A stretch of 64,000 nt of DNA from positions 384,001-448,000 of the forward strand of contig CAWISW010000003.1 of assembly GCA_963838925.1 (NCBI GenBank), given 5' to 3'. Origin of the DNA: an uncultured Nitrososphaerota archaeon (GTDB lineage Archaea > Thermoproteota > Nitrososphaeria > Nitrososphaerales > Gagatemarchaeaceae). Shown here piece after piece: positions 23,531-33,136 of the stretch. Numbering within the stretch: the first letter of the stretch is position 1; every line of letters begins with the position of its first letter. A program made the position numbers and the translations under genes. The notes beneath the pieces are model-generated. The model had not been told where the DNA came from and made no database searches. It saw only the letters and a list, made by a program, of their open reading frames with translations.

Positions 23531-24016
23531 ATGCCGCAGGTCCCTGTTCGGTACTCGTTCAAGCAGAAGTTCTCCGTCCCAGTGGAGGAGGCGTTCAGGT
23601 GGTCCATCGACTACGACCCGAACGACTTCTCTCTGATGGGCCAGGAAGGCACGAGGAAGATCAACAAGCTAACGGAGGACACCGTCATCCTCGAGGACGC
23701 GAGAAAGACCCCGGATGGCACAATCGAGAGGACGCGTCTCATCAGGATCAATCCGGACAAGCACGCGTTCACCAACACGCACATCACAGGCCCGACCCTT
23801 CACTCCCAGTTCTGGTATGAGTTCTTCCCAGAAGGGAAGCGGGCATCGAGGCTCGAGTTCACAGGACTGCTCCTATACCCGAGCGACAGGAAGCTGACCA
23901 AGAAGGAGGTCGCCCAGATCGCGGCCAACGAGCTGAAGGGGGACTCTCTGATCTGGAAGAACCTGGCGAAGGCAATGGAAGCCGACCTGAAGAAGACCCG
24001 CAGGACCAGGCGTTAG
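23531..24016 (+). CDS. SRPBCC-like hypothetical protein (tandem paralog 1)
   Basis: AFRW..DYD..D..LMG; similar to 24020-24487. Confidence 0.7.
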   Translation: MPQVPVRYSFKQKFSVPVEEAFRWSIDYDPNDFSLMGQEGTRKINKLTEDTVILEDARKTPDGTIERTRLIRINPDKHAFTNTHITGPTLHSQFWYEFFPEGKRASRLEFTGLLLYPSDRKLTKKEVAQIAANELKGDSLIWKNLAKAMEADLKKTRRTRR

Positions 24017-24019
24017 CCC

Positions 24020-24487
24020 TTGGTCGTCGTCTCGACAAGGTACGAGTTCTCCCAGCACTTCGACGTCCCAGCGGCCCAGGCATTCCGCTGGTGCACGGAC
24101 TATGACGCCAAGGACCACAATCTCATGGGACTCAAGGGCTTCAGGAAGGTGACTCGAGTGGCGGACGACACGGTAATCCTCGAGGACACGCTGTATCCAG
24201 AGGGCAAGGCCGTGACCAAGAAGAAGCTGATCAAGATCGACAAGGAAAGGATGACCTACTTCAACTTCCACGTCACCGGCGCGAACAAGAATTCGCTGTA
24301 CTTCTACCGGATAATCCCTGAAGGAGACGGCAAGTCCAGGCTCGAATACACCGGCTACGAGCTGACCTACCCAAAGAGGGCCCCGACAAAGAAGCAGCTG
24401 GCGGCCACCGCCGTAGCTGATGCGGCGACGAGGACGAAGGAGTGGGCACGGCTCGCAAAAGCGATGGAGAGGGAGCTGCGCGGTTAG
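24020..24487 (+). CDS. SRPBCC-like hypothetical protein (tandem paralog 2)
   Basis: Shares DTVILED, SRLE.TG, W..LAKAME with the upstream gene. Confidence 0.7.
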   Translation: MVVVSTRYEFSQHFDVPAAQAFRWCTDYDAKDHNLMGLKGFRKVTRVADDTVILEDTLYPEGKAVTKKKLIKIDKERMTYFNFHVTGANKNSLYFYRIIPEGDGKSRLEYTGYELTYPKRAPTKKQLAATAVADAATRTKEWARLAKAMERELRG

Positions 24488-24508: not shown

Positions 24509-25078
24509 GTGGTCGTTAAGTATCCAAAGACCCTGCAATCGTGTTTGGCTTCTCGCAGAGTCTGCAACAGATGTAAGAGGGAACTACCCACTACTGCCTT
24601 CTACACTCAACCGATAGGAATCCGCCGAATTTGCAAGAGGTGTGACAACGAATACTCGAAAAACTATCACAAGTCTCATCTCGAAGGCGCCAGAAGATTA
24701 GATAGGAAACGCGCGCTCAGAAACCCGAAGAGAAGATGGGCGACGGCTTGTTTGTCAGGTCATCGAAGAAGGGGGTATGCTATTGAGATGACCTCTGAAG
24801 AGCTCTATCAAGTGGCGTTGCATACTGAGCTTTGCTTCATCTGCGGTTCTCAGATAGACTGGGAGCTGGGAAACAAGGGTCACATGCATAACAGGAGTCC
24901 AACGCTAGACAGAGTGGACAACGAAGATGTAATCAGGATTGACAACATCCTCATTCTCTGCTACAAATGCAACGCAACCAAGCGCGACCGCACCCTGAAA
25001 GAGTTCCTAGACTATTGCAGGGCCGTCGTCGCTAGGTTCTACTCACACTTCGAGTATCCGCAGCTCGTGCATTTATAA
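24509..25078 (+). CDS. Free-standing HNH-type (Zn-finger) endonuclease
   Basis: CxxC pairs, CFICG...PTLDRVDN...NILILCYKCNATK; lower GC; overlaps the nrdJ 3' end by 40 bp. Confidence 0.8.
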   Translation: MVVKYPKTLQSCLASRRVCNRCKRELPTTAFYTQPIGIRRICKRCDNEYSKNYHKSHLEGARRLDRKRALRNPKRRWATACLSGHRRRGYAIEMTSEELYQVALHTELCFICGSQIDWELGNKGHMHNRSPTLDRVDNEDVIRIDNILILCYKCNATKRDRTLKEFLDYCRAVVARFYSHFEYPQLVHL

Positions 25079-27363
25079 CAACCCGCCTCGAATATTATCG
25101 CGTTCTCGTGACAGTCGGGGCACGTGCCTCCGCGCATCAGCGGGACCGACGACTCCTTGTTCACCTTGCCCGAGGTGAGGACCTCGAGCGCCTTGGCGAC
25201 GGCGTCTGGTATCGAGAGCAGCTGGATTCCCTCCTCCCACGAGACGTACTTGCCGCGGATGCCCTTCAGCATCTTCACGACGCTCTGGATGTCCCCGCCG
25301 TGCTGGAGGTAGAGGCTGATCAGCCTGCCGATCGCCTCGGCGTCGGCCTTCTCGTCCCCGCCCAGCTTGCCCAGAGTCACGAAGACCTCCTTCAGGTCGC
25401 CGGCCTCGTCGGAGTTGGCGGTGACGTACAGCCCTCCCTGGGGCAGCTTGAGCTTCAGAGTCCTCCCGGTGAGCACCTTCGGCCTCTCGAATGTCGTGGG
25501 CGCCTCCTGCTTGGGCTCCGTCCTCACGCCGCCGGCCTCCTTCTTGTCCACGTTCGCCGTCTCGAGGATGCCCTCCCTGCTTCCTTCCCTGTAGACCGTG
25601 ATGCCCTTGCACCCGAGCTTCCACGCGAGGAAGTAGATCTTCTCGACCTCTTCCGTGGAGATGTCCTGGGGTAGGTTGACCGTGCTCGAGATGGCCGTGT
25701 CGATGTGCTTCTGGATGGCGGCCTGCATCCTGACCCTCATCTCGGGCTTGATCTGGTGAGCCGTCACGAAGTACGCGGGCAGGGAGGTCTCGTCGGTGAT
25801 GCGGAAGACCCTCATGTATTCCTTGACGAGCGGGTGCCAGACCTTGAACTCGCCCTCGCTGAGGGACTTGCTCCTCCGGGTGTAGTAGAGGGCGAAGACC
25901 GGCTCGACGCCGCTCGAGGAGCCCACGAATATGGAGCCTGACCCCACCGGCGGGACGGTCGTGAGGGCTGAGTTCCTTATCCCCTGGGTCCTGATCTTCT
26001 CGCGCACGTTCGCGTCCAGCCTCTTGATGAAGGGCTGGGCCAGGTGCTTCTCCGCGTCGAAGGCGGGCGCCGGGCCCTTCTCCTTCGCGAGGTCGGTCGA
26101 GTAGTCGTAGATGACGTTCGTCATCCTCTCGAAGAGCTTGTCGACGAACTCTACGGTGGCCTCGTCGTCATACTTCATGCCGAGCTTGATGAGCATGTCT
26201 CCCAGCCCGGTCGTCCCTACTCCCACTCTCCTCGACCACAGAGAGGCGGTCTTCTGCTGCGGGAGGGGGTGCTTGTCCGCGTTGTAGTCGAGGACGTTGT
26301 CCAGGAACCTAGTGGCGTACTGCGCCGCCTTTGCGAGGCCGGGCCAGTCGATGCTCGCCCGGTCGGTGAAGGCGTCCTTCACGAAGGAGCTCAGGTTGAC
26401 CGAGCCCAGGCAGCAGCAGCCGTAGTTCTCGAGGGTCTGCTCGCTGCACGGGTTGACCCCCTCGACCGCCATGCCGTTGTACTCGGTGGTGGAGTCCCTC
26501 TTGATCGTGTCCCAGAATATGAGGCCCGGCTCGTCGCTCTGCCACGCCGCCTTGACCAGCTGGTTCCAGACCTCCCTCGCGCGGACGCTCCTCTCGAACT
26601 TCACCTTCTCGTTCTGGAACCTGAGAGTGAACTGGGAGTCCTTCTCGACCGCGTTCATGAACTCGTCGGTTATCTTGACCGAGATGTTCGCATAGTTCAC
26701 CTTCTTCAGGTCCTTCTTGACGTTGATGAAGTCGAATATGTCGGGGTGGTCAACGCGTATCGTGATCATCAGGGCCCCCCTTCGCCCGGCCTGCCCGATC
26801 GTCCCCGTGGTCGTCGAGAGGAGCTCCATGAAGGAGACCGAGCCGGAGCTGAAGATGGCCGAGTTGTTCACGGGCGTGCCGCGCGGCCTCAGCAGCGAGA
26901 TGTCGGTGCCCACGCCCCCTCCGAAGCTGTAGGTCCTCGCCGCCTCCTTGCACCAGTCGAAGATGCCCTCGATCGAGTCCTCCCTGATCTTGAAGAAGTA
27001 ACAGTTGAGTAGCGTCGACCTTCTGGACTGACCTGCGCCGAACAATATCCTGCCGCCAGGCACAAACTTGAAGTCGTCTAGGAGCCAGTAGAACTTCTCT
27101 GTCCACTCGGCCCTCTTGACGTCGTTGACCTCCACGGAGGCCAGCTCTCGGGCGACCCTCTCCCAGAGCTGCTTCGGGAGCCTCTCGACCTGCTTCCCGG
27201 TCTCGTCCCTGAGCGCGTACTTCTCGTAGAAGACCCGCGCCCTGAGCTCGTCGCCGCCGAAGGCCTCGAGCGTCTCTTTTGGAAGAATTACCTCCGGCTT
27301 TTGGAGCTGCTGCTCCATCATCTCGCCCTCCTTCTTCGTTGATTCCTCAATCTCAGCTGTCAA
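25039..27363 (-). CDS. nrdJ: Adenosylcobalamin-dependent (class II) ribonucleotide reductase
   Basis: TLLNC, GRRGA, NPCSEQ, SSGVEP, ISSTVN, KGITVYR, C-terminal TSCPD/Zn domain. Confidence 0.95.
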   Translation of the reverse strand: MTAEIEESTKKEGEMMEQQLQKPEVILPKETLEAFGGDELRARVFYEKYALRDETGKQVERLPKQLWERVARELASVEVNDVKRAEWTEKFYWLLDDFKFVPGGRILFGAGQSRRSTLLNCYFFKIREDSIEGIFDWCKEAARTYSFGGGVGTDISLLRPRGTPVNNSAIFSSGSVSFMELLSTTTGTIGQAGRRGALMITIRVDHPDIFDFINVKKDLKKVNYANISVKITDEFMNAVEKDSQFTLRFQNEKVKFERSVRAREVWNQLVKAAWQSDEPGLIFWDTIKRDSTTEYNGMAVEGVNPCSEQTLENYGCCCLGSVNLSSFVKDAFTDRASIDWPGLAKAAQYATRFLDNVLDYNADKHPLPQQKTASLWSRRVGVGTTGLGDMLIKLGMKYDDEATVEFVDKLFERMTNVIYDYSTDLAKEKGPAPAFDAEKHLAQPFIKRLDANVREKIRTQGIRNSALTTVPPVGSGSIFVGSSSGVEPVFALYYTRRSKSLSEGEFKVWHPLVKEYMRVFRITDETSLPAYFVTAHQIKPEMRVRMQAAIQKHIDTAISSTVNLPQDISTEEVEKIYFLAWKLGCKGITVYREGSREGILETANVDKKEAGGVRTEPKQEAPTTFERPKVLTGRTLKLKLPQGGLYVTANSDEAGDLKEVFVTLGKLGGDEKADAEAIGRLISLYLQHGGDIQSVVKMLKGIRGKYVSWEEGIQLLSIPDAVAKALEVLTSGKVNKESSVPLMRGGTCPDCHENAIIFEAGCYKCTSCGYSKCE

Positions 27364-27478
27364 ATATCAAATCGCGCATTCTGACCAACGGACGCCCTTT
27401 ATCTTCCTCTTGGTGGAGTATTTGTTCACCCATCCCCTGCTCTAAAGGGTTCCGAGGGAGTCAATGAGACGCTCCTAG

Positions 27479-27505
27479 GTCAACTAGAGTTGACAGGAAG
27501 TCAAC
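27479..27505. promoter_or_regulatory. Overlapping GTCAAC/GTTGAC palindromes upstream of nrdJ (candidate operator)
   Basis: GTCAACTAGAGTTGACAGGAAGTCAAC; related GCAACTAAGATTGA at 29691-29704. Confidence 0.55.
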
Positions 27506-27519
27506 CGTTTTTGCCTAAA

Positions 27520-29652
27520 TCACTCGGTCGTCGAATATTGAGCCGTGGCCGTCGACCTGCATTTTGTGCATCTTTCCGTCTTTGCAGGAAGTTTCGAGCC
27601 GCAGTTGCGGCAGAAGGACACCGTCCTCTCGATCCCGAAGAAGTCGAGCTTCGGAGTCGCGTTCAAGGCGAGGTTGTATATCCCGCGGAGGTCTAGCGAC
27701 GACGCGTCCAGGTAGACCGAGAAGCCGCCGGCCGCGGCCTGGCTGACCTTGCTCATGTAGTTCATGGTCTCCGCGTTGTTGAGGTCCTCCCCCGTCAGCC
27801 TCGCCGCCTGGGAGTACCCGCGCTTCTCGAGGCTCTGCAGGTTCGCCCTGCCGTATCTCTCCGAGTCCAGCGAGGCGAGCCTCGCCGCCCCTCCCTCCTC
27901 GATGAGCGCGATCGCGAGCCGCTCGCTCTTCCCCGACTTCTCCGAGGCCGACTGCGACGCGGTCCCCAGTATCTTCGCGGCGAGGTCCGCCCTGGCGGAG
28001 GGCGCGGCCTCCTTGCTCAGGCCGAAGAGCGCTTCGTCGAGCCCTACCAGGTTCATCACCAGCGGCATCGTCGTGGAGCTCACGTTGTCGGAGCCGAAGC
28101 TCAGCGCAGGAAGGAGCCCCTTGTTCATCACCCTCTCGAGGAGGCGCCTGCGGGTGATCAGCGCGTCGGATGCGACGCCCATGAGCATGGAGAGCTTTGC
28201 CCTGAAGTACGTCTCGTCCTGGTTGGACTCGTAGGAGAGCCTCGGGAGGTTGATCCCCAGGTTGTGCAGGACGCTGACGTTGTCGCTCTGGTTGTCGGCG
28301 GGGAGGACGTCCAGGTTGATCCCCAGGGAGCTCCTCTTCTGCCCCGAAGGGAAGAACCCGACCTTGCCTCCGTGGAATATTATGGCGGCCGCCTCCTTCA
28401 GGTACGACGTCTCCTCCGACTTGTGTGGCTTCGCGAGCAGAATCCGGAGCTGCGGCCTCGGGACCTGCTCGACGTAGTCCCTGTAGGCGTCGAGGGTTGC
28501 GCCGAGCGTCTTCTCCATGAGGTCGCGCCCCGCGTCGTCCTTGACGTAGAGGTCCAGGTGCAGGGTGACCGACGGCCGCTGCAAAGGCTGGAGCACCGAC
28601 GAGACCTGGTCGAAGAGCTTGACGAGCGCGTCGGCCACGTCCTTCTTGGTCCGGGACCGCGTGAACTGCGCGAGGTACTGTAGGAAGTTGCTGAAGACTA
28701 TCTCCTGGTTGGCCTCCTTCTTGATGAGGGGCGTGATGTTCGCGATGACGTTGATCGCCTCCTCGAGGTTCGCAGGGCTCTGGAGCATCGGGACCCCCGG
28801 GAGCCTCCCCTTGGGGTTGAACCCCGAGGCGCGGACGGAAAGGAGGTCGAGGAAGATCGTGTCAGGGATGAGCGCCCAGGTGCCGGCCTCCGAGATGTTG
28901 ATGTCCCCGTTGAGGTGAGCGTCGGAGACGTCCCTCGGGAGCTGCTCGAGCAGGAGGTACTCAGAGAAGACCGACTTGCCCGTCTGGTGGAGGAGGGACT
29001 CCGCGTCGCCGTCGTCCGCACCCGCCTTTGTGAGGAGCTGGGTTACGTCGTAGACGGGCAGGCCTAGGCGCGTGAGCTTGTGCCTGTACTCCTCCAGGTT
29101 CTGCTCGACGAGGAGCGCGTTGACCATCTCCCTGATCAGGGGCGCCGTCAGGTACTGGGTCTGGAACTTGTAGAGCCGCGATTCGGTCTCGCTCGTGATC
29201 TTCTGCGCGAGCTCGACGGGCATCCCCGCCTCCTTGACGAGCGACTGGAGTATCTTGTCCGCGTTGAACTCCTCCATCGCCTGGCGGGTCGTCCTGACGT
29301 AGAGCTTGCCGCTCTCGATCAGCGACTGCTCCTCGATCTGTCGGGTGAGGTTGAGCACGAGCCTCCCAAGGTTGGTGACCGTGTACTTCCTCTCCTGCCT
29401 GTTCAGCTGGATCAGCAGCTGGCGGACTAGCTTCCTCAGGTGGTATGCGAACTTTCCCGACTCCTTCTTGGACTTGAAGCCCGCCAGCGACTTGAGCGCG
29501 CTGTAGGTGAGAGGTCCCTTGACGTTGAGGATCTTCAGGATCTCGAGCCTCTGCGGGGAGGCGATGACGCTGTAAATTGTCCTGACTCTGCGAGGAGCGG
29601 CTTGCATCTCTACCACAGTCACCGAGTCGAAACTATATAATGATGACATCAC
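27520..29652 (-). CDS. wHTH + ATP-cone + degenerate NrdD-like protein (probable RNR regulator)
   Basis: ArsR-like N-terminus, ATP-cone (EEFNADKILQSL..EAG...TAPLIRE.V), NrdD-like body (DAHLNGDI, INLPRL); only C-terminal Zn-ribbon Cys; no RxxGY motif. Confidence 0.85.
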   Translation of the reverse strand: MMSSLYSFDSVTVVEMQAAPRRVRTIYSVIASPQRLEILKILNVKGPLTYSALKSLAGFKSKKESGKFAYHLRKLVRQLLIQLNRQERKYTVTNLGRLVLNLTRQIEEQSLIESGKLYVRTTRQAMEEFNADKILQSLVKEAGMPVELAQKITSETESRLYKFQTQYLTAPLIREMVNALLVEQNLEEYRHKLTRLGLPVYDVTQLLTKAGADDGDAESLLHQTGKSVFSEYLLLEQLPRDVSDAHLNGDINISEAGTWALIPDTIFLDLLSVRASGFNPKGRLPGVPMLQSPANLEEAINVIANITPLIKKEANQEIVFSNFLQYLAQFTRSRTKKDVADALVKLFDQVSSVLQPLQRPSVTLHLDLYVKDDAGRDLMEKTLGATLDAYRDYVEQVPRPQLRILLAKPHKSEETSYLKEAAAIIFHGGKVGFFPSGQKRSSLGINLDVLPADNQSDNVSVLHNLGINLPRLSYESNQDETYFRAKLSMLMGVASDALITRRRLLERVMNKGLLPALSFGSDNVSSTTMPLVMNLVGLDEALFGLSKEAAPSARADLAAKILGTASQSASEKSGKSERLAIALIEEGGAARLASLDSERYGRANLQSLEKRGYSQAARLTGEDLNNAETMNYMSKVSQAAAGGFSVYLDASSLDLRGIYNLALNATPKLDFFGIERTVSFCRNCGSKLPAKTERCTKCRSTATAQYSTTE

Positions 29653-29743
29653 TCAGAGTCAAATAAAATCCACCGTTCCTGAGGAGTATTGCAACTAAGA
29701 TTGAAGACTGCGTGAAAGTGTAAATTTCGCGCTGTTCTGCGCT

Positions 29744-29917
29744 CTACGCGCCGAAGTTCTTCCTCAGTTCTCCGAAGGCCCGCAACCTATCGACAAGCTC
29801 CCAGAACTCTTCGTAGCTCGTTCCCCTCCGATAAACCTCTAGCAGTTGCTTGACTAGGTCACTTTCGATTTCTGCGAGTTCTGTCCCCAGCGCTCTTCTT
29901 TCTTCTCGACTTGCCAA
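29744..29917 (-). CDS. Micro-protein C2 (57 aa)
   Basis: TTG start; MASREERRALGTELAEIESDLVKQLLEVYRRGTSYEEFWELVDRLRAFGELRKNFGA. Confidence 0.5.
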   Translation of the reverse strand: MASREERRALGTELAEIESDLVKQLLEVYRRGTSYEEFWELVDRLRAFGELRKNFGA

Positions 29918-29999
29918 TTATCGCTTCTACCGCTTTCTCCGCCAACTTCTTTCTTTCTGACGGGGGCAAATTGGAGATCTTTTCATCTTCGCTCAGCAC
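29859..29999 (-). CDS. Micro-protein C1 (46 aa, basic tail)
   Basis: MLSEDEKISNLPPSERKKLAEKAVEAIIGKSRRKKSAGDRTRRNRK; TTAAATAT box ~30040. Confidence 0.4.
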   Translation of the reverse strand: MLSEDEKISNLPPSERKKLAEKAVEAIIGKSRRKKSAGDRTRRNRK

Positions 30000-30074
30000 C
30001 CAGATTTCCCTCGCTCATGGCCTTCTGATGCACCCAGATATTTAAGCGGCTTGCAAAATCTTGGCAGGGAGAAT

Positions 30075-30100
30075 TGGTGGGGTCGCCCGGATTTGAACCG
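30075..30100 (-). repeat. Duplicated tRNA-Pro 3' end (att-like direct repeat)
   Basis: TGGTGGGGTCGCCCGGATTTGAACCGG identical to the sequence starting at 31542. Confidence 0.9.
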
Positions 30101-30165
30101 GACACGTCGGGCCCTTCCGGGTAACCTATTTACGACAGCGAGCCGACTTTCACTCGGCGTCCAGG

Positions 30166-31530
30166 TTGACTAGTCGCAGCTCTATGGCGTTTGCTGCCGC
30201 TACGATTTGCACACTGGCCTTCTATCTTCTAGTCTCCAGCTATCTCTCTCCGAATTCGGTTACGACGTCCACGAGTTCGACTGAGATCAGCACCACCCCT
30301 TCACCTTACGGCGCTCTGCTCAGGGGGTCGACGATCTACTCGCAGCTAGGCTATCCGTTGGTGAGCTACAACGGCAATTCGCAATACTCCCCAAGCAAAC
30401 CAAATTTCACCCTTTCTTACCGAAGCACTCATCTTGGTTTGGACGACGTGGGCTTTGCAGTAGCGACGCCAGTCATGAGTCTCACTCAAGCAGTTCGACT
30501 CGTTGAATCTCCGGAAGGCCCGAGTAAGGCAAACTACAGCTTGGTGGCAGCGGAATTCGACCCGGGCATAATCGTAAACAACACTGTCTGGCAATCGGCC
30601 ACTTGGCTGCTTTGGTTCGCCCAGGTCTACGACGGGTTCTGGCTCTTCGGACAAGGTAACGATGCAAGCTCATTCCTCTTCAGCGTGAACGCCGCTTCGG
30701 GCACGGTCTCGCAACCTACCAGCTTCCCTACCTACCAACCTTTGCCTGGGAACTATGCGCTAACCGTGACGGGCTCCCAGGCGATGAAAGTTGTGCGGGG
30801 ACTTGGAATCTTTTCAAGTGTCCCGTTTGAGCTGACACAAGGCGGGAACCTCACTAGTATCAGCCCTAGAATCATCAGGTTTGATTCAGGATCGAGTCTT
30901 GACATCCAGCACCCATTGAACTCTGCCCTTGATGGGACCTCGAGGCTATGCTGGATGATCTCGCTGACCTATTCCGCGTCAGCGAGCAGGCAAGGGTGGG
31001 AGGGAGAGTTCGCTGTGGACGCGCAGTCAGGCGAGCTCGACTCCGTATCCGTCGGCCCAATTTTCCCGGAGAGCTTTTTCGCAACGGTCAATTCAAATCT
31101 GGTCCAGTCGTCTGCGCGCAACCTCACAATCTCTCAGGAAACATTCCAAATGAGCGTGAATGCGACTGGACTTCCAAGCTCAATTGCCATCGCAGTTCCT
31201 GGCGTTCTTGTGGTCCGGCCAGGATCGACCGCTTCAATCGAAGTGAACTTCACGTCGAACTCTAACTACATCGCAAACCTTACCCTCTCGAATCCTCTCT
31301 CCGGCCTCCAAGGCCTTTCGGCAAACGGGCTTCCTCAAGGCGTGTCTGCAAGGTTCAGCAACACCACGCTCGCGCTTCAGGGAGGTACAAGCACCACGCG
31401 GACAATCATGCTTACGATTGAAGCGGATGCGCCTGCAGGAACATACCTGATGTACGTTGACAATCTGCCATTCTTCCTGACAGTCTGGAATGGCGCTGGT
31501 CAGTGGCCTCCGCCGCCCTCGGTTGGGTAG
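30166..31530 (+). CDS. Membrane-anchored secreted protein (PepSY-like and Ig-like segments)
   Basis: N-terminal TM, S/T linker, VNA.SG/VDA.SG repeats; bracketed by tRNA-Pro 3' repeats. Confidence 0.75.
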   Translation: MTSRSSMAFAAATICTLAFYLLVSSYLSPNSVTTSTSSTEISTTPSPYGALLRGSTIYSQLGYPLVSYNGNSQYSPSKPNFTLSYRSTHLGLDDVGFAVATPVMSLTQAVRLVESPEGPSKANYSLVAAEFDPGIIVNNTVWQSATWLLWFAQVYDGFWLFGQGNDASSFLFSVNAASGTVSQPTSFPTYQPLPGNYALTVTGSQAMKVVRGLGIFSSVPFELTQGGNLTSISPRIIRFDSGSSLDIQHPLNSALDGTSRLCWMISLTYSASASRQGWEGEFAVDAQSGELDSVSVGPIFPESFFATVNSNLVQSSARNLTISQETFQMSVNATGLPSSIAIAVPGVLVVRPGSTASIEVNFTSNSNYIANLTLSNPLSGLQGLSANGLPQGVSARFSNTTLALQGGTSTTRTIMLTIEADAPAGTYLMYVDNLPFFLTVWNGAGQWPPPPSVG

Positions 31531-31541
31531 GGGGGCAAATT

Positions 31542-31664
31542 TGGTGGGGTCGCCCGGATTTGAACCGGGGGTCTCAAGCGCCCAAGGCGACTTCTCATGC
31601 TGATTTGAAGCCTAGACCAGACTCGCCCTGCAGCTCTGAAAGCTACAGCCTAGCCGACGACCCC
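31542..31664 (-). tRNA. tRNA-Pro(TGG) with two non-canonical introns (~28 nt in D-loop, ~16 nt in anticodon stem)
   Basis: GGGGTCG/CGACCCC acceptor, encoded CCA, CAA[intron]GC-CTTGGGC-GCTTG anticodon arm, CCCGGTTCAAATCCGGG. Confidence 0.9.
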
Positions 31665-32515: not shown

Positions 32516-33136
32516 TTATGCATTCCTCTTGGACACGAACGGATTCCCCTGGACGAAGAACCGCCACTGCCGCTCCCGTGCCCTGCTGATGCCAATCCTT
32601 TCCGAGACCTCGGCCTTTACGGGCTCTTCGCTGCCCAGGACGTAGAGCCTCTTCGACGTCACCACGTCCTCGCCGTTGAACTCCTTGCCGATTGCCAGCG
32701 CCTTCGTCAGCTTCCCGGGCCCGTTCGTGAGCCTCGAGAGCTCTTCGACGCCGCGGTTCCTCTTCATCTGGGCCGTCCCCTCCACGGGCTCCAGGGCCCT
32801 GACCAGGACCGCGCCCGGCTGCCCCTCCCCTTCAGTTGTGAAGTTCAGGCACCAGTGATTTCCATAGGAGAGAAAGACATAGACCCTTCCCGCTTCCCCG
32901 AACATGAGCGAGTTCCTCTTCGTGACCCCGCGGAAAGAGTGGCTGGCCGGGTCGTCGCTTCCACGGTAGGCCTCGACCTCCACTATCTTCCCAGAGATGA
33001 CATTCTTCCCGGCTTTCCTCACGAGGAGGCACCCGAGAAGGTCTCGCGCGACGTCGGGGGTGTATCGGGAGAAGAACGAGCGGCCCAGGCGATTCACGGA
33101 CACTCCGGAGCAAGACCGGTTTATCAGGCATGCCAA
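32516..33136 (-). CDS. mpg: 3-methyladenine DNA glycosylase (MPG family)
   Basis: IVEVEAY...DPASH, YG.HWCLN, AVLVRALEP, NGPGKLT. Confidence 0.93.
   Translation of the reverse strand: MACLINRSCSGVSVNRLGRSFFSRYTPDVARDLLGCLLVRKAGKNVISGKIVEVEAYRGSDDPASHSFRGVTKRNSLMFGEAGRVYVFLSYGNHWCLNFTTEGEGQPGAVLVRALEPVEGTAQMKRNRGVEELSRLTNGPGKLTKALAIGKEFNGEDVVTSKRLYVLGSEEPVKAEVSERIGISRARERQWRFFVQGNPFVSKRNA

Follow-up and report, generated by a model that had tools for sequence, protein, structure and literature searches.

A gene on the minus strand of a 64,000-nucleotide (nt) stretch of DNA from an uncultured Nitrososphaerota archaeon (family Gagatemarchaeaceae; assembly GCA_963838925.1, contig CAWISW010000003.1, positions 384,001 to 448,000 of the forward strand; called the window below and numbered from its first letter) probably encodes a non-catalytic descendant of the class III ribonucleotide reductase (RNR) NrdD that acts as a transcription factor for RNR genes. 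The predicted protein joins an N-terminal winged helix-turn-helix (wHTH) domain and an ATP-cone to an NrdD-like body from which the residues of radical chemistry are missing, its gene stands directly upstream of the class II RNR gene nrdJ, and a 16-bp two-fold symmetric motif recurs upstream of the RNR gene and of the regulator gene in related loci. That the protein binds this motif, that nucleotides control it and that the outcome is repression is what we infer. To our knowledge, the control of RNR transcription in archaea is largely unknown; if the reading is correct, a family present in nearly all sampled Nitrososphaeria would be a strong candidate for the missing archaeal RNR regulator and a clear case of a large enzyme converted to a sensor domain.

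A class III reductase fold without reductase chemistry

The open reading frame (ORF) list gives a minus-strand ORF at 27520..29652, which we confirmed and which yields 710 amino acids (aa) when read from GTG 29652. The most likely start is ATG 29607, because homologues begin at residue 16 of the 710-aa reading and because the putative TATA box of the gene lies downstream of GTG 29652; this predicted coding sequence (27520..29607, minus strand) comprises 695 aa and the stop codon TGA at 27520–27522. Pfam residue ranges, the Cys positions 681, 684, 695 and 698 and the position of RASGF (274) are given in the 710-aa numbering, whereas all other residue numbers follow the 695-aa protein.

Four domains can be assigned along the minus strand. 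Residues 1–98 (29314..29607) form the wHTH domain, in which AlphaFold2 (AF2) predicts three helices, a beta-hairpin wing and a long linker helix. In Pfam this part scores 37.1 bits with DUF7347, a winged helix (cut-off 27.6); DUF7347 and HTH_20 span residues 26–100, and the ArsR-type family profiles are not passed (HTH_20, 23.4 bits against a Pfam cut-off of 27; NF033788, 19.1 against 55). Residues of about 99–190 (29038..29313) are the ATP-cone, Pfam PF03477 (residues 118–189, 27.1 bits, cut-off 25.8), an assignment which combines a score just over the cut-off with weak fold matches and conservation. Residues 191–660 (27628..29037) are an NrdD-like barrel body without catalytic residues, recognised by Pfam NRDD, profile alignment, AF2 and Foldseek; the NRDD match covers residues 220–702 and profile positions 12–531 of 562 with 97.7 bits against a cut-off of 26.2. 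The last segment (27523..27627) is a Zn ribbon with Cys666, 669, 680 and 683, followed by a 12-residue tail with no glycyl-radical loop. NrdR was absent among the NCBIfam matches of the protein at E <= 0.1.

The AF2 model of the full protein, built on an alignment of 73 rows, has a mean predicted local distance difference test (pLDDT) of 89.2 and a predicted template modelling score of 0.83, and class III RNRs fill ranks 1–36 of its Foldseek matches (S. thermophilus, T. maritima, P. copri, T4; best E 3.5e-21). In the model, the class III RNR fold is retained, including the ten-stranded alpha/beta barrel. A separate model of residues 1–200 (pLDDT 84.0) matches regulators of the ArsR, NolR and CzrA type, also CadC and HlyU, in Foldseek with template modelling scores (target) of 0.65–0.76 and E >= 7e-3, the wHTH superposing with a root-mean-square deviation of 2–3 Å over about 90 columns; the same model also matches, weakly, the ATP-cones of NrdR (9a6n_B, 9fxk_F, 7p37_A) and of class I NrdA and NrdB. 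The body (residues 200–695), modelled in two copies, gave a symmetric dimer joined through helices 281–298 and 321–338, with a dimer score of 0.76 (best of 3 controls, 0.00), contact agreement between runs of at least 94% and a partner pLDDT of at least 85. Of the proteins solved as one-chain pairs, 20 of 30 reach the dimer mark, and of those solved as single chains, 1 of 23; since NrdD dimers have already been solved, reaching it expresses likeness to NrdD and is not proof of dimerisation.

The residues of the radical chemistry are lost. The protein has four Cys in total (681, 684, 695, 698), all within a C-terminal CxxC-N10-CxxC ribbon; they are invariant in the alignments A1 and A2 and align to the CxxC pairs of T4 NrdD. 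The chain stops 12 residues past the last of them, a C-terminal RxxG[YFW] is absent, and the sole match to that pattern is RASGF at 274, within the body. When a profile of 22 family members was aligned to solved NrdDs with HMMER, the T4 segment PMGCRSFL (Cys290 by hand count) faced a Cys-less family position directly before a retained Arg-Ser, the T4 NCC segment that includes Cys79 faced a gap or Ile, and T4 Asn311, which we take to be a catalytic position, faced Val. No Cys occupies the column equivalent to Cys79 in any of the 73 wHTH-bearing relatives of the larger alignment, and none was read there at the G-x-R finger-loop position, several rows having a Cys a few residues off. The finger loop was judged from the HMMER profile alignment and the segment before NLPR; addition of the intein-bearing true NrdD P0265 with MAFFT misplaced the loop. 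The NCBIfam equivalog for NrdD, TIGR02487, scores 85.2 bits against a cut-off of 326.35.

In class III RNR the finger-loop Cys starts the reaction, and Cys79 and the C-terminal glycyl-radical loop are functional (PMC4493059); the glycyl-radical residue of T4 NrdD is Gly580 (PMC2795772). A missing aligned Cys alone is not proof of inactivity, since T. maritima NrdD lacks the loop-tip Cys and has an SCCR motif nearby (PMC4493059). The protein of the window has no Cys at all outside the ribbon, and a thiyl radical is therefore impossible; as far as sequence can exclude it, the protein cannot be a working RNR. A NrdG scoring above cut-off was found neither in the window nor in the genome (1.84 Mb, 3 contigs), which is 87% complete so that absence is not proven; the best scores with NrdG models, 51.3 bits for TIGR02495 (cut-off 131) and 23.1 bits for TIGR02491 (cut-off 126), belong to radical-SAM ORFs of 313–395 aa. 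The original prediction, made from the sequence of the window, had described a catalytically dead class III RNR fused to an HTH domain and an ATP-cone, with no Cys outside the C-terminal Zn ribbon, no glycyl-radical loop and no nrdG in the window. Each of these points is borne out by the domain matches, the four ribbon Cys, the short tail, the NrdG searches and the retained NrdD fold, and the alignment to catalytic residues that it had proposed, now carried out, finds the positions of Cys79, Cys290 and Asn311 replaced.

Conservation is uneven along the chain. When compared with the protein of the window, 19 divergent Nitrososphaeria-type proteins are 67% identical in the wHTH, 64% in the cone, 28% in the body and 29% in the ribbon; for 32 Bathyarchaeia-type proteins the respective values are 31%, 58%, 21% and 23%. 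By these identities the ATP-cone is the most constrained domain. The evidence for the proposed nucleotide sensing is the presence of this cone in the sequence together with its strong conservation.

Linkage to RNR genes and distribution of the family

As the original prediction had it, nrdJ is the next gene downstream; it lies on the same strand (25039..27363, minus), after a gap of 156 nt. It encodes a class II (B12-dependent) RNR with a TTG start, consisting of an RNR barrel, an all-alpha domain and a C-terminal TSCPD domain with no ATP-cone (NrdJ_Z, 548.6 bits against a cut-off of 400). Genome-wide there is one match each for NRDD (the regulator candidate), the RNR barrel (nrdJ) and the ATP-cone (again the regulator candidate), and the genome encodes cytochrome oxidase subunit II.

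An RNR gene follows the regulator gene directly in 70 of 79 related loci, in 69 of them on the same strand and in locus L022 convergently; the other nine loci have little or no DNA beyond the gene (3 to about 640 nt). In lineages whose regulator is 44–50% identical to that of the window, the downstream RNR is only 31–37% identical to the window nrdJ. A word-indexed search found more than 100 clusters that share the three Pfam domains, and an exhaustive search at E <= 1e-30 returned 192 representatives; the wider family includes one member labelled Odinarchaeia. The N-terminal 200 aa are matched in 370 of 401 sampled genomes of the class Nitrososphaeria and in 342 of the 350 high-quality ones; five unpublished genomes (G231, G327, G283, G132, G365) all match, and leaving them out gives 365 of 396 and 337 of 345, respectively. 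In one family, f13, the N-terminal half was found in none of 14 genomes, and all five of those examined (G002, G007, G023, G027, G035) have an RNR with a strong ATP-cone of its own; one of the five also carries an intact NrdD.

Relatives are labelled by their sources either ‘anaerobic ribonucleoside-triphosphate reductase’ or ‘ArsR family transcriptional regulator’. The first of these names is the mis-annotation that had been anticipated for similar proteins, and metabolic reconstructions that rely on it could assign to aerobic archaea an oxygen-sensitive RNR which is absent from them.

A conserved motif upstream of nrdJ

The intergenic regions between regulator and RNR genes yielded the consensus GTCAA-N6-TTNAC; of its 55 instances, 53 have a six-base spacer. 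The strict motif is present in 53 of 74 such regions (2.67 sites per kb) and in 36 of 74 regions of 200 nt upstream of the regulator gene (2.43 sites per kb), whereas the remaining 734 kb of these loci hold 11 sites (0.015 per kb), an enrichment of about 170-fold. The motif is retained as protein identity falls from 92% to 44% and as the DNA shifts from GC-rich to AT-rich.

Two predicted operators precede nrdJ in the window. O1b (27479..27494) is a perfect 16-bp palindrome, GTCAACTCTAGTTGAC, of the form GTCAAC-N4-GTTGAC, and O1a (27500..27515, minus strand; GGCAAAAACGGTTGAC), which has one imperfect half-site, lies 21 bp from it centre to centre. With a symmetric scoring matrix made from 37 distinct sites of relatives, the window excluded, O1b is the best site of the 1.84-Mb genome at 22.7 bits, the next best scoring 18.3, and O1a scores 11.1 bits. 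Sites resembling O1a, G(A/G)CAA-N6-TTGAC, recur by eye in the closest clades and in L022. Farther downstream are a putative nrdJ TATA box, GATAAAGG (27396..27403, minus strand), read by eye from its position and its conservation in relatives, and a half-site, P1 (GTGAAC; 27424..27429, minus strand), about 27 nt upstream of that box. TATA boxes and transcription starts were throughout read by eye from sequence and conservation.

Spacing was compared over 47 rows, made up of the window and those relatives at least 60% identical that have a downstream RNR match. A strict site is missing in 9 of them, one stops short of the promoter, and the remaining 37 show both the site and a recognisable TATA box. 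In 34 of these 37 rows O1 lies 89–93 nt from the TATA box, and in the window the figure is 91 nt. Of 46 rows, 45 have a half-site GT[CTG]AA 16–36 nt ahead of the nrdJ TATA box, compared with 5% of random 20-nt windows; as a full 16-mer, P1 scores only −2.9 bits. In most loci the operator begins about 25 nt past the regulator stop codon. The inverted nrdJ of L022 has paired sites (14.5 and 11.1 bits), a proximal half-site and a TATA box on its upstream side, with a site-to-TATA spacing of about 93 nt by hand count, and no comparable element follows the regulator stop codon there. Because the element moved in L022 and keeps a fixed distance from the TATA box, it can be assigned to the nrdJ promoter and not to the 3' end of the regulator gene.

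A block beside O1b, GCGTCTCATTGACTC (27458..27472, minus strand), was seen by eye in relatives; read as GCGTCTCATTGAC, it is conserved by eye down to 50% protein identity. In loci L063–L066 the block by the operator pairs with an inverted copy about 50 nt upstream, making a long inverted repeat that encloses an operator.

The promoter of the regulator gene

Upstream of the regulator gene we identified a candidate operator, O2 (GTGGATTTTATTTGAC; 29658..29673, minus strand), which lies 18 nt upstream of a putative TATA box, TTATATA (29634..29640, minus strand), itself about 30 nt upstream of ATG 29607. The TATA box is invariant in the three closest relatives (L010, L011 and L021). O2 scores 14.2 bits, rank 12 in the genome, and has one variable position among the window and these three relatives. 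In other lineages the regulator promoter carries GTTAAATAC-NN-TTGAC, an operator that contains a TATA-like box, and of 34 sites found at promoters of regulator genes, 30 overlap a TATA-like TTAAATA. An operator placed over the TATA-like box argues for autorepression in those lineages and is the best argument for repression. Neither O1 nor O2 overlaps its TATA box in the window, each standing upstream of it, so repression here would need cooperative binding or looping to the proximal half-site.

Both of the 14-bp palindromes named in the original prediction are present, at 27480–27493 and 29691–29704, and their fates differ. The first, before nrdJ, is the core of O1b, which has one more base on each side, and footprinting across relatives supports the nrdJ side in 53 of 74 regions. 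The second scores −1.1 bits, no more than chance, and is replaced by unrelated sequence in L010, L011 and L021; O2 at 29658–29673 is the better candidate. Of the proposal of an autoregulated repressor analogous to NrdR, the role as a regulator of an RNR gene agrees with every computational test made, namely lost catalytic residues, a retained NrdD fold, near-universal linkage to RNR genes and a conserved operator on the nrdJ side; the own-gene palindrome falls away, and the repressor is a putative one.

Farther upstream, a stretch at 30070–30105 (minus strand), GGTTCAAATCCGGGCGACCCCACCA, resembles a tRNA T-arm and acceptor end with CCA. ARAGORN found no tRNA in 29600–31600 and Rfam none at 30070–30105. 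Relatives have a tRNA-like sequence, apparently interrupted, in the same place upstream of the regulator gene, and the stretch may be an intron-containing or split tRNA gene.

Proposed mechanism

We propose that the NrdD-like body would hold the protein as a dimer, so placing two N-terminal winged-helix domains that would read the 16-bp two-fold site GTCAA-N6-TTNAC (ideally GTCAAC-N4-GTTGAC). The ATP-cone, and possibly also the retained body, would sense adenine nucleotides as the dATP/ATP ratio, and sensing would alter the oligomeric state or the arrangement of domains, and hence DNA binding. Cooperative binding or looping is suggested by the O1a/O1b pair with the nrdJ half-site some 64 bp beyond it, and O2, directly upstream of the gene's own TATA box, would be the autoregulatory site. 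The operator copies at 27479–27494 and 29658–29673 are ready probes for binding assays.

A more far-reaching scenario can be put forward tentatively, its parts taken together. The whole dead class III reductase might be the sensor of an archaeal counterpart of NrdR, in which the cone would read dATP/ATP and the body's retained dimer-interface (specificity-site) region would read dNTP balance. The dimer might then switch between assemblies that bridge the two distal operators and the proximal half-site, with a fixed 91-nt geometry, and this switching would set transcription of the cell's only RNR. The regulator might have arisen once, by duplication of nrdD in the ancestor of Nitrososphaeria and Bathyarchaeia, and have been retargeted from nrdD to nrdJ as the lineage became aerobic, with wHTH and operator co-evolving.

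Several observations weigh against a role as the transcription factor of RNR genes, or against parts of it. On the protein side, the ATP-cone match barely exceeds its Pfam cut-off, the cone segment, searched as a single sequence among solved structures, hit no solved cone and gave only chance-level matches (E >= 0.2), and the Foldseek E-values of the N-terminal model are all weak, 3.4e-3 and above, because every target spans only half of the model. On the DNA side, the strict motif is absent from 21 of 74 intergenic and 38 of 74 regulator upstream regions; the regulator promoter of the window itself lacks it, O2 having one imperfect half-site. O1 lies 91 nt upstream of the nrdJ TATA box, unlike the position of simple archaeal repressors, and because it does not lie over the box, simple NrdR-like promoter occlusion is not evident at nrdJ. 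In L010, L011 and L021 the O1-to-TATA distance is 243–263 nt, an exception explained by an insertion between operator and nrdJ promoter: about 150 extra bases stand there in these three closest relatives (L010, 5835–6080; same position in L011 and L021). Across the genome the strict motif occurs 10 times, compared with 8–19 times in shuffled sequence, and the other high-scoring sites adjoin unrelated genes (phosphoglycerate mutase-like, GalT-like, COX2), the neighbours of the other top sites having no link to dNTP metabolism or no Pfam family; for these reasons we claim no regulon beyond nrdJ and the regulator gene. Finally, the loci are mutually related and their counts are not independent events, so the counts overstate the independent support.

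The genome's only other near-perfect operator-like palindrome, GTCAAGAGGCTTTGAC (G000:C2:501791–501806; L089:1417–1432), lies between divergent phosphoglycerate mutase-like and GalT/DUF4921-like genes and may be due to chance.

Alternative explanations

What the protein itself does could be explained in two other ways. It might be a working class III RNR that uses an unusual radical route, as its NrdD fold and Zn ribbon could suggest. We give this next to no credence: the ribbon holds all of its Cys, the glycyl-radical loop is missing, no NrdG was found above cut-off, the score is far under the NrdD equivalog cut-off, and the genome has cytochrome oxidase subunit II and a complete nrdJ. The protein might also act on a working RNR as a protein-level partner, for instance by lending its cone in trans to NrdJ or by pairing with true NrdD in Bathyarchaeia, the DNA motif being read by some other factor. 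The NrdJ of the window is cone-less, with the genome's only cone in the regulator candidate, the family without the regulator (0 of 14 genomes) has a cone-bearing RNR in five of five genomes examined, and the entire NrdD body and its dimer helices are retained. Such a partner would not account well for a wHTH as conserved as the cone (67% and 64%), nor for a motif shared by its own promoter and that of the RNR, a pattern typical of factors that regulate their own gene; moreover, the class of the partner RNR varies between lineages, and some lineages have both the regulator and a cone-bearing RNR (L063–L066, by eye). We consider this explanation quite improbable.

For the DNA element, a nature as RNA (a 3' end, a leader structure or a small RNA) seems very improbable as compared with a protein-binding site. 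TTGAC-N5-GTCAAC and GTCAAC-N4-GTTGAC could make alternative hairpins, the first of which appears in the minimum-energy fold, and the element lies 25 nt past the regulator stop codon in most loci, but the fold energy is ordinary (z −0.90; 33 of 200 shuffles fold as well) and Rfam over 24900–30300 gave just a sub-threshold hammerhead (19.6 bits against 34) inside a coding region. In many relatives, by eye, one arm decays (TCAAC, TTAAC, TTTAC) while GTCAA stays, so that pairing is lost without compensation; in addition, the element travelled with the nrdJ promoter in L022, and at the regulator gene this motif lies across the TATA box. More serious is the alternative that the transcription factor is an activator or dual regulator at nrdJ, where the distal operators would help to recruit TBP/TFB and repression would be confined to the factor's own promoter in lineages with a site over the TATA box. 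The fixed O1-to-TATA distance (89–93 nt in 34 of 37 rows) with only a half-site near the promoter would suit this, as would O2, which in the window is also upstream of its TATA box and not over it. The 30 of 34 own-promoter sites that overlap a TATA-like box have the geometry of a repressor, the known ATP-cone regulator NrdR is a repressor (PMC9110341), and repression by looping would be just as compatible with the proximal half-site of 45 of 46 rows. Activation at nrdJ seems unlikely, and the preferred reading is still a transcription factor for RNR genes, putatively a repressor.

Comparison with known systems

NrdR combines an ATP-cone with a DNA-binding module, and its sites, paired 16-bp partly palindromic boxes, lie before RNR genes and often before its own gene (PMC9110341, PMC13584703); it is reported to be rare in archaea (PMC9110341). 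The regulator candidate is similar in joining an ATP-cone to a DNA-binding module and in its predicted paired 16-bp sites before an RNR gene and before its own gene. It differs in most other respects. NrdR has about 150 aa and an N-terminal, DNA-binding Zn ribbon, whereas the candidate has 695 aa, an N-terminal wHTH, a complete dead NrdD body and a C-terminal ribbon of the NrdD type; its boxes are spaced 21 bp centre to centre, whereas NrdR boxes have a 15–16 bp linker, and its operator sequence presumably differs from the NrdR box.

The barrel, the position of the cone, the Zn ribbon and the modelled dimer helices are those of NrdD (T4 1h78, T. maritima 4coi, P. copri 8p2s, S. thermophilus 9dca); unlike NrdD, the candidate lacks the radical-chemistry residues and the glycyl-radical domain, has an extra N-terminal wHTH, and has no activase that we could find in the genome. 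In fold, residues 1–98 resemble the ArsR/SmtB-type wHTH (NolR 4omz, ArsR 6j05, CzrA 1r1u) and the archaeal PH1932/Phr-type wHTH. Unlike in the ArsR/SmtB type, the wHTH belongs to DUF7347, HTH_20 being under cut-off, and the sensor would be the cone with the dead body. PutA, BirA and NadR couple an enzyme fold to a DNA-binding domain, with a metabolite controlling transcription of the pathway, and keep their catalysis; the candidate, unlike these catalytic proteins, is a predicted pseudoenzyme. Among open-access papers and preprints, supplements aside, we found no description of a regulator of wHTH, ATP-cone and NrdD-like body, nor did PMC9669993 and PMC11226230 yield one on helix-turn-helix, winged or DNA-binding terms.

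Bathyarchaeia paralogues and possible origin

Paralogues of about 750 aa from Bathyarchaeia (L095–L174) share the wHTH, the cone and the dead NrdD body, and retain a remnant of the glycyl-radical domain, mostly without its Gly. Among 49 loci with at least 3 kb downstream, the paralogue precedes a true nrdD in 25 and an nrdJ-like gene instead in three, the criterion for a true nrdD being an identity of at least 45% between its tail and the P0265 tail. P0265 (metagenomic, 1206 aa) is an intact NrdD, with 529 bits in Pfam and an RITGY motif. A small glutaredoxin-like gene and a true nrdD stand downstream of the paralogue.

The motif of Nitrososphaeria has no site in the regulator-to-nrdD spacers of 80 Bathyarchaeia loci. 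Instead, 11 of 25 spacers contain TATACA-N3-5-TTTTATAC by the promoter, compared with 1 match in 261 kb elsewhere. A different repeat in Bathyarchaeia fits the divergence of the wHTH there (31% identity). Adjoining the promoter in these spacers is also a repeat, TATACAGAATTTTATAC, preceded by TGTCAATTT (for example L123:7223–7560).

Residues 99–267 of the regulator candidate, the cone and the segment following it, are 37% identical to P0265 and share with it the unusual sequence YVRTS...F..KI..SL. This shared cone sequence suggests that the regulators descend from an NrdD of the P0265 kind, making that lineage a candidate source for them. In P0265 a LAGLIDADG intein is inserted beside the pair of finger-loop Cys.

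Other features of the window

Among the neighbouring features, recorded together at 23531–24487 (plus strand) and 32516–33136 (minus strand), are two adjacent paralogous ORFs of about 160 aa, the second of which has a weak match to the polyketide-cyclase/SRPBCC fold, and a methylpurine-DNA glycosylase gene 3 kb upstream of the regulator gene.

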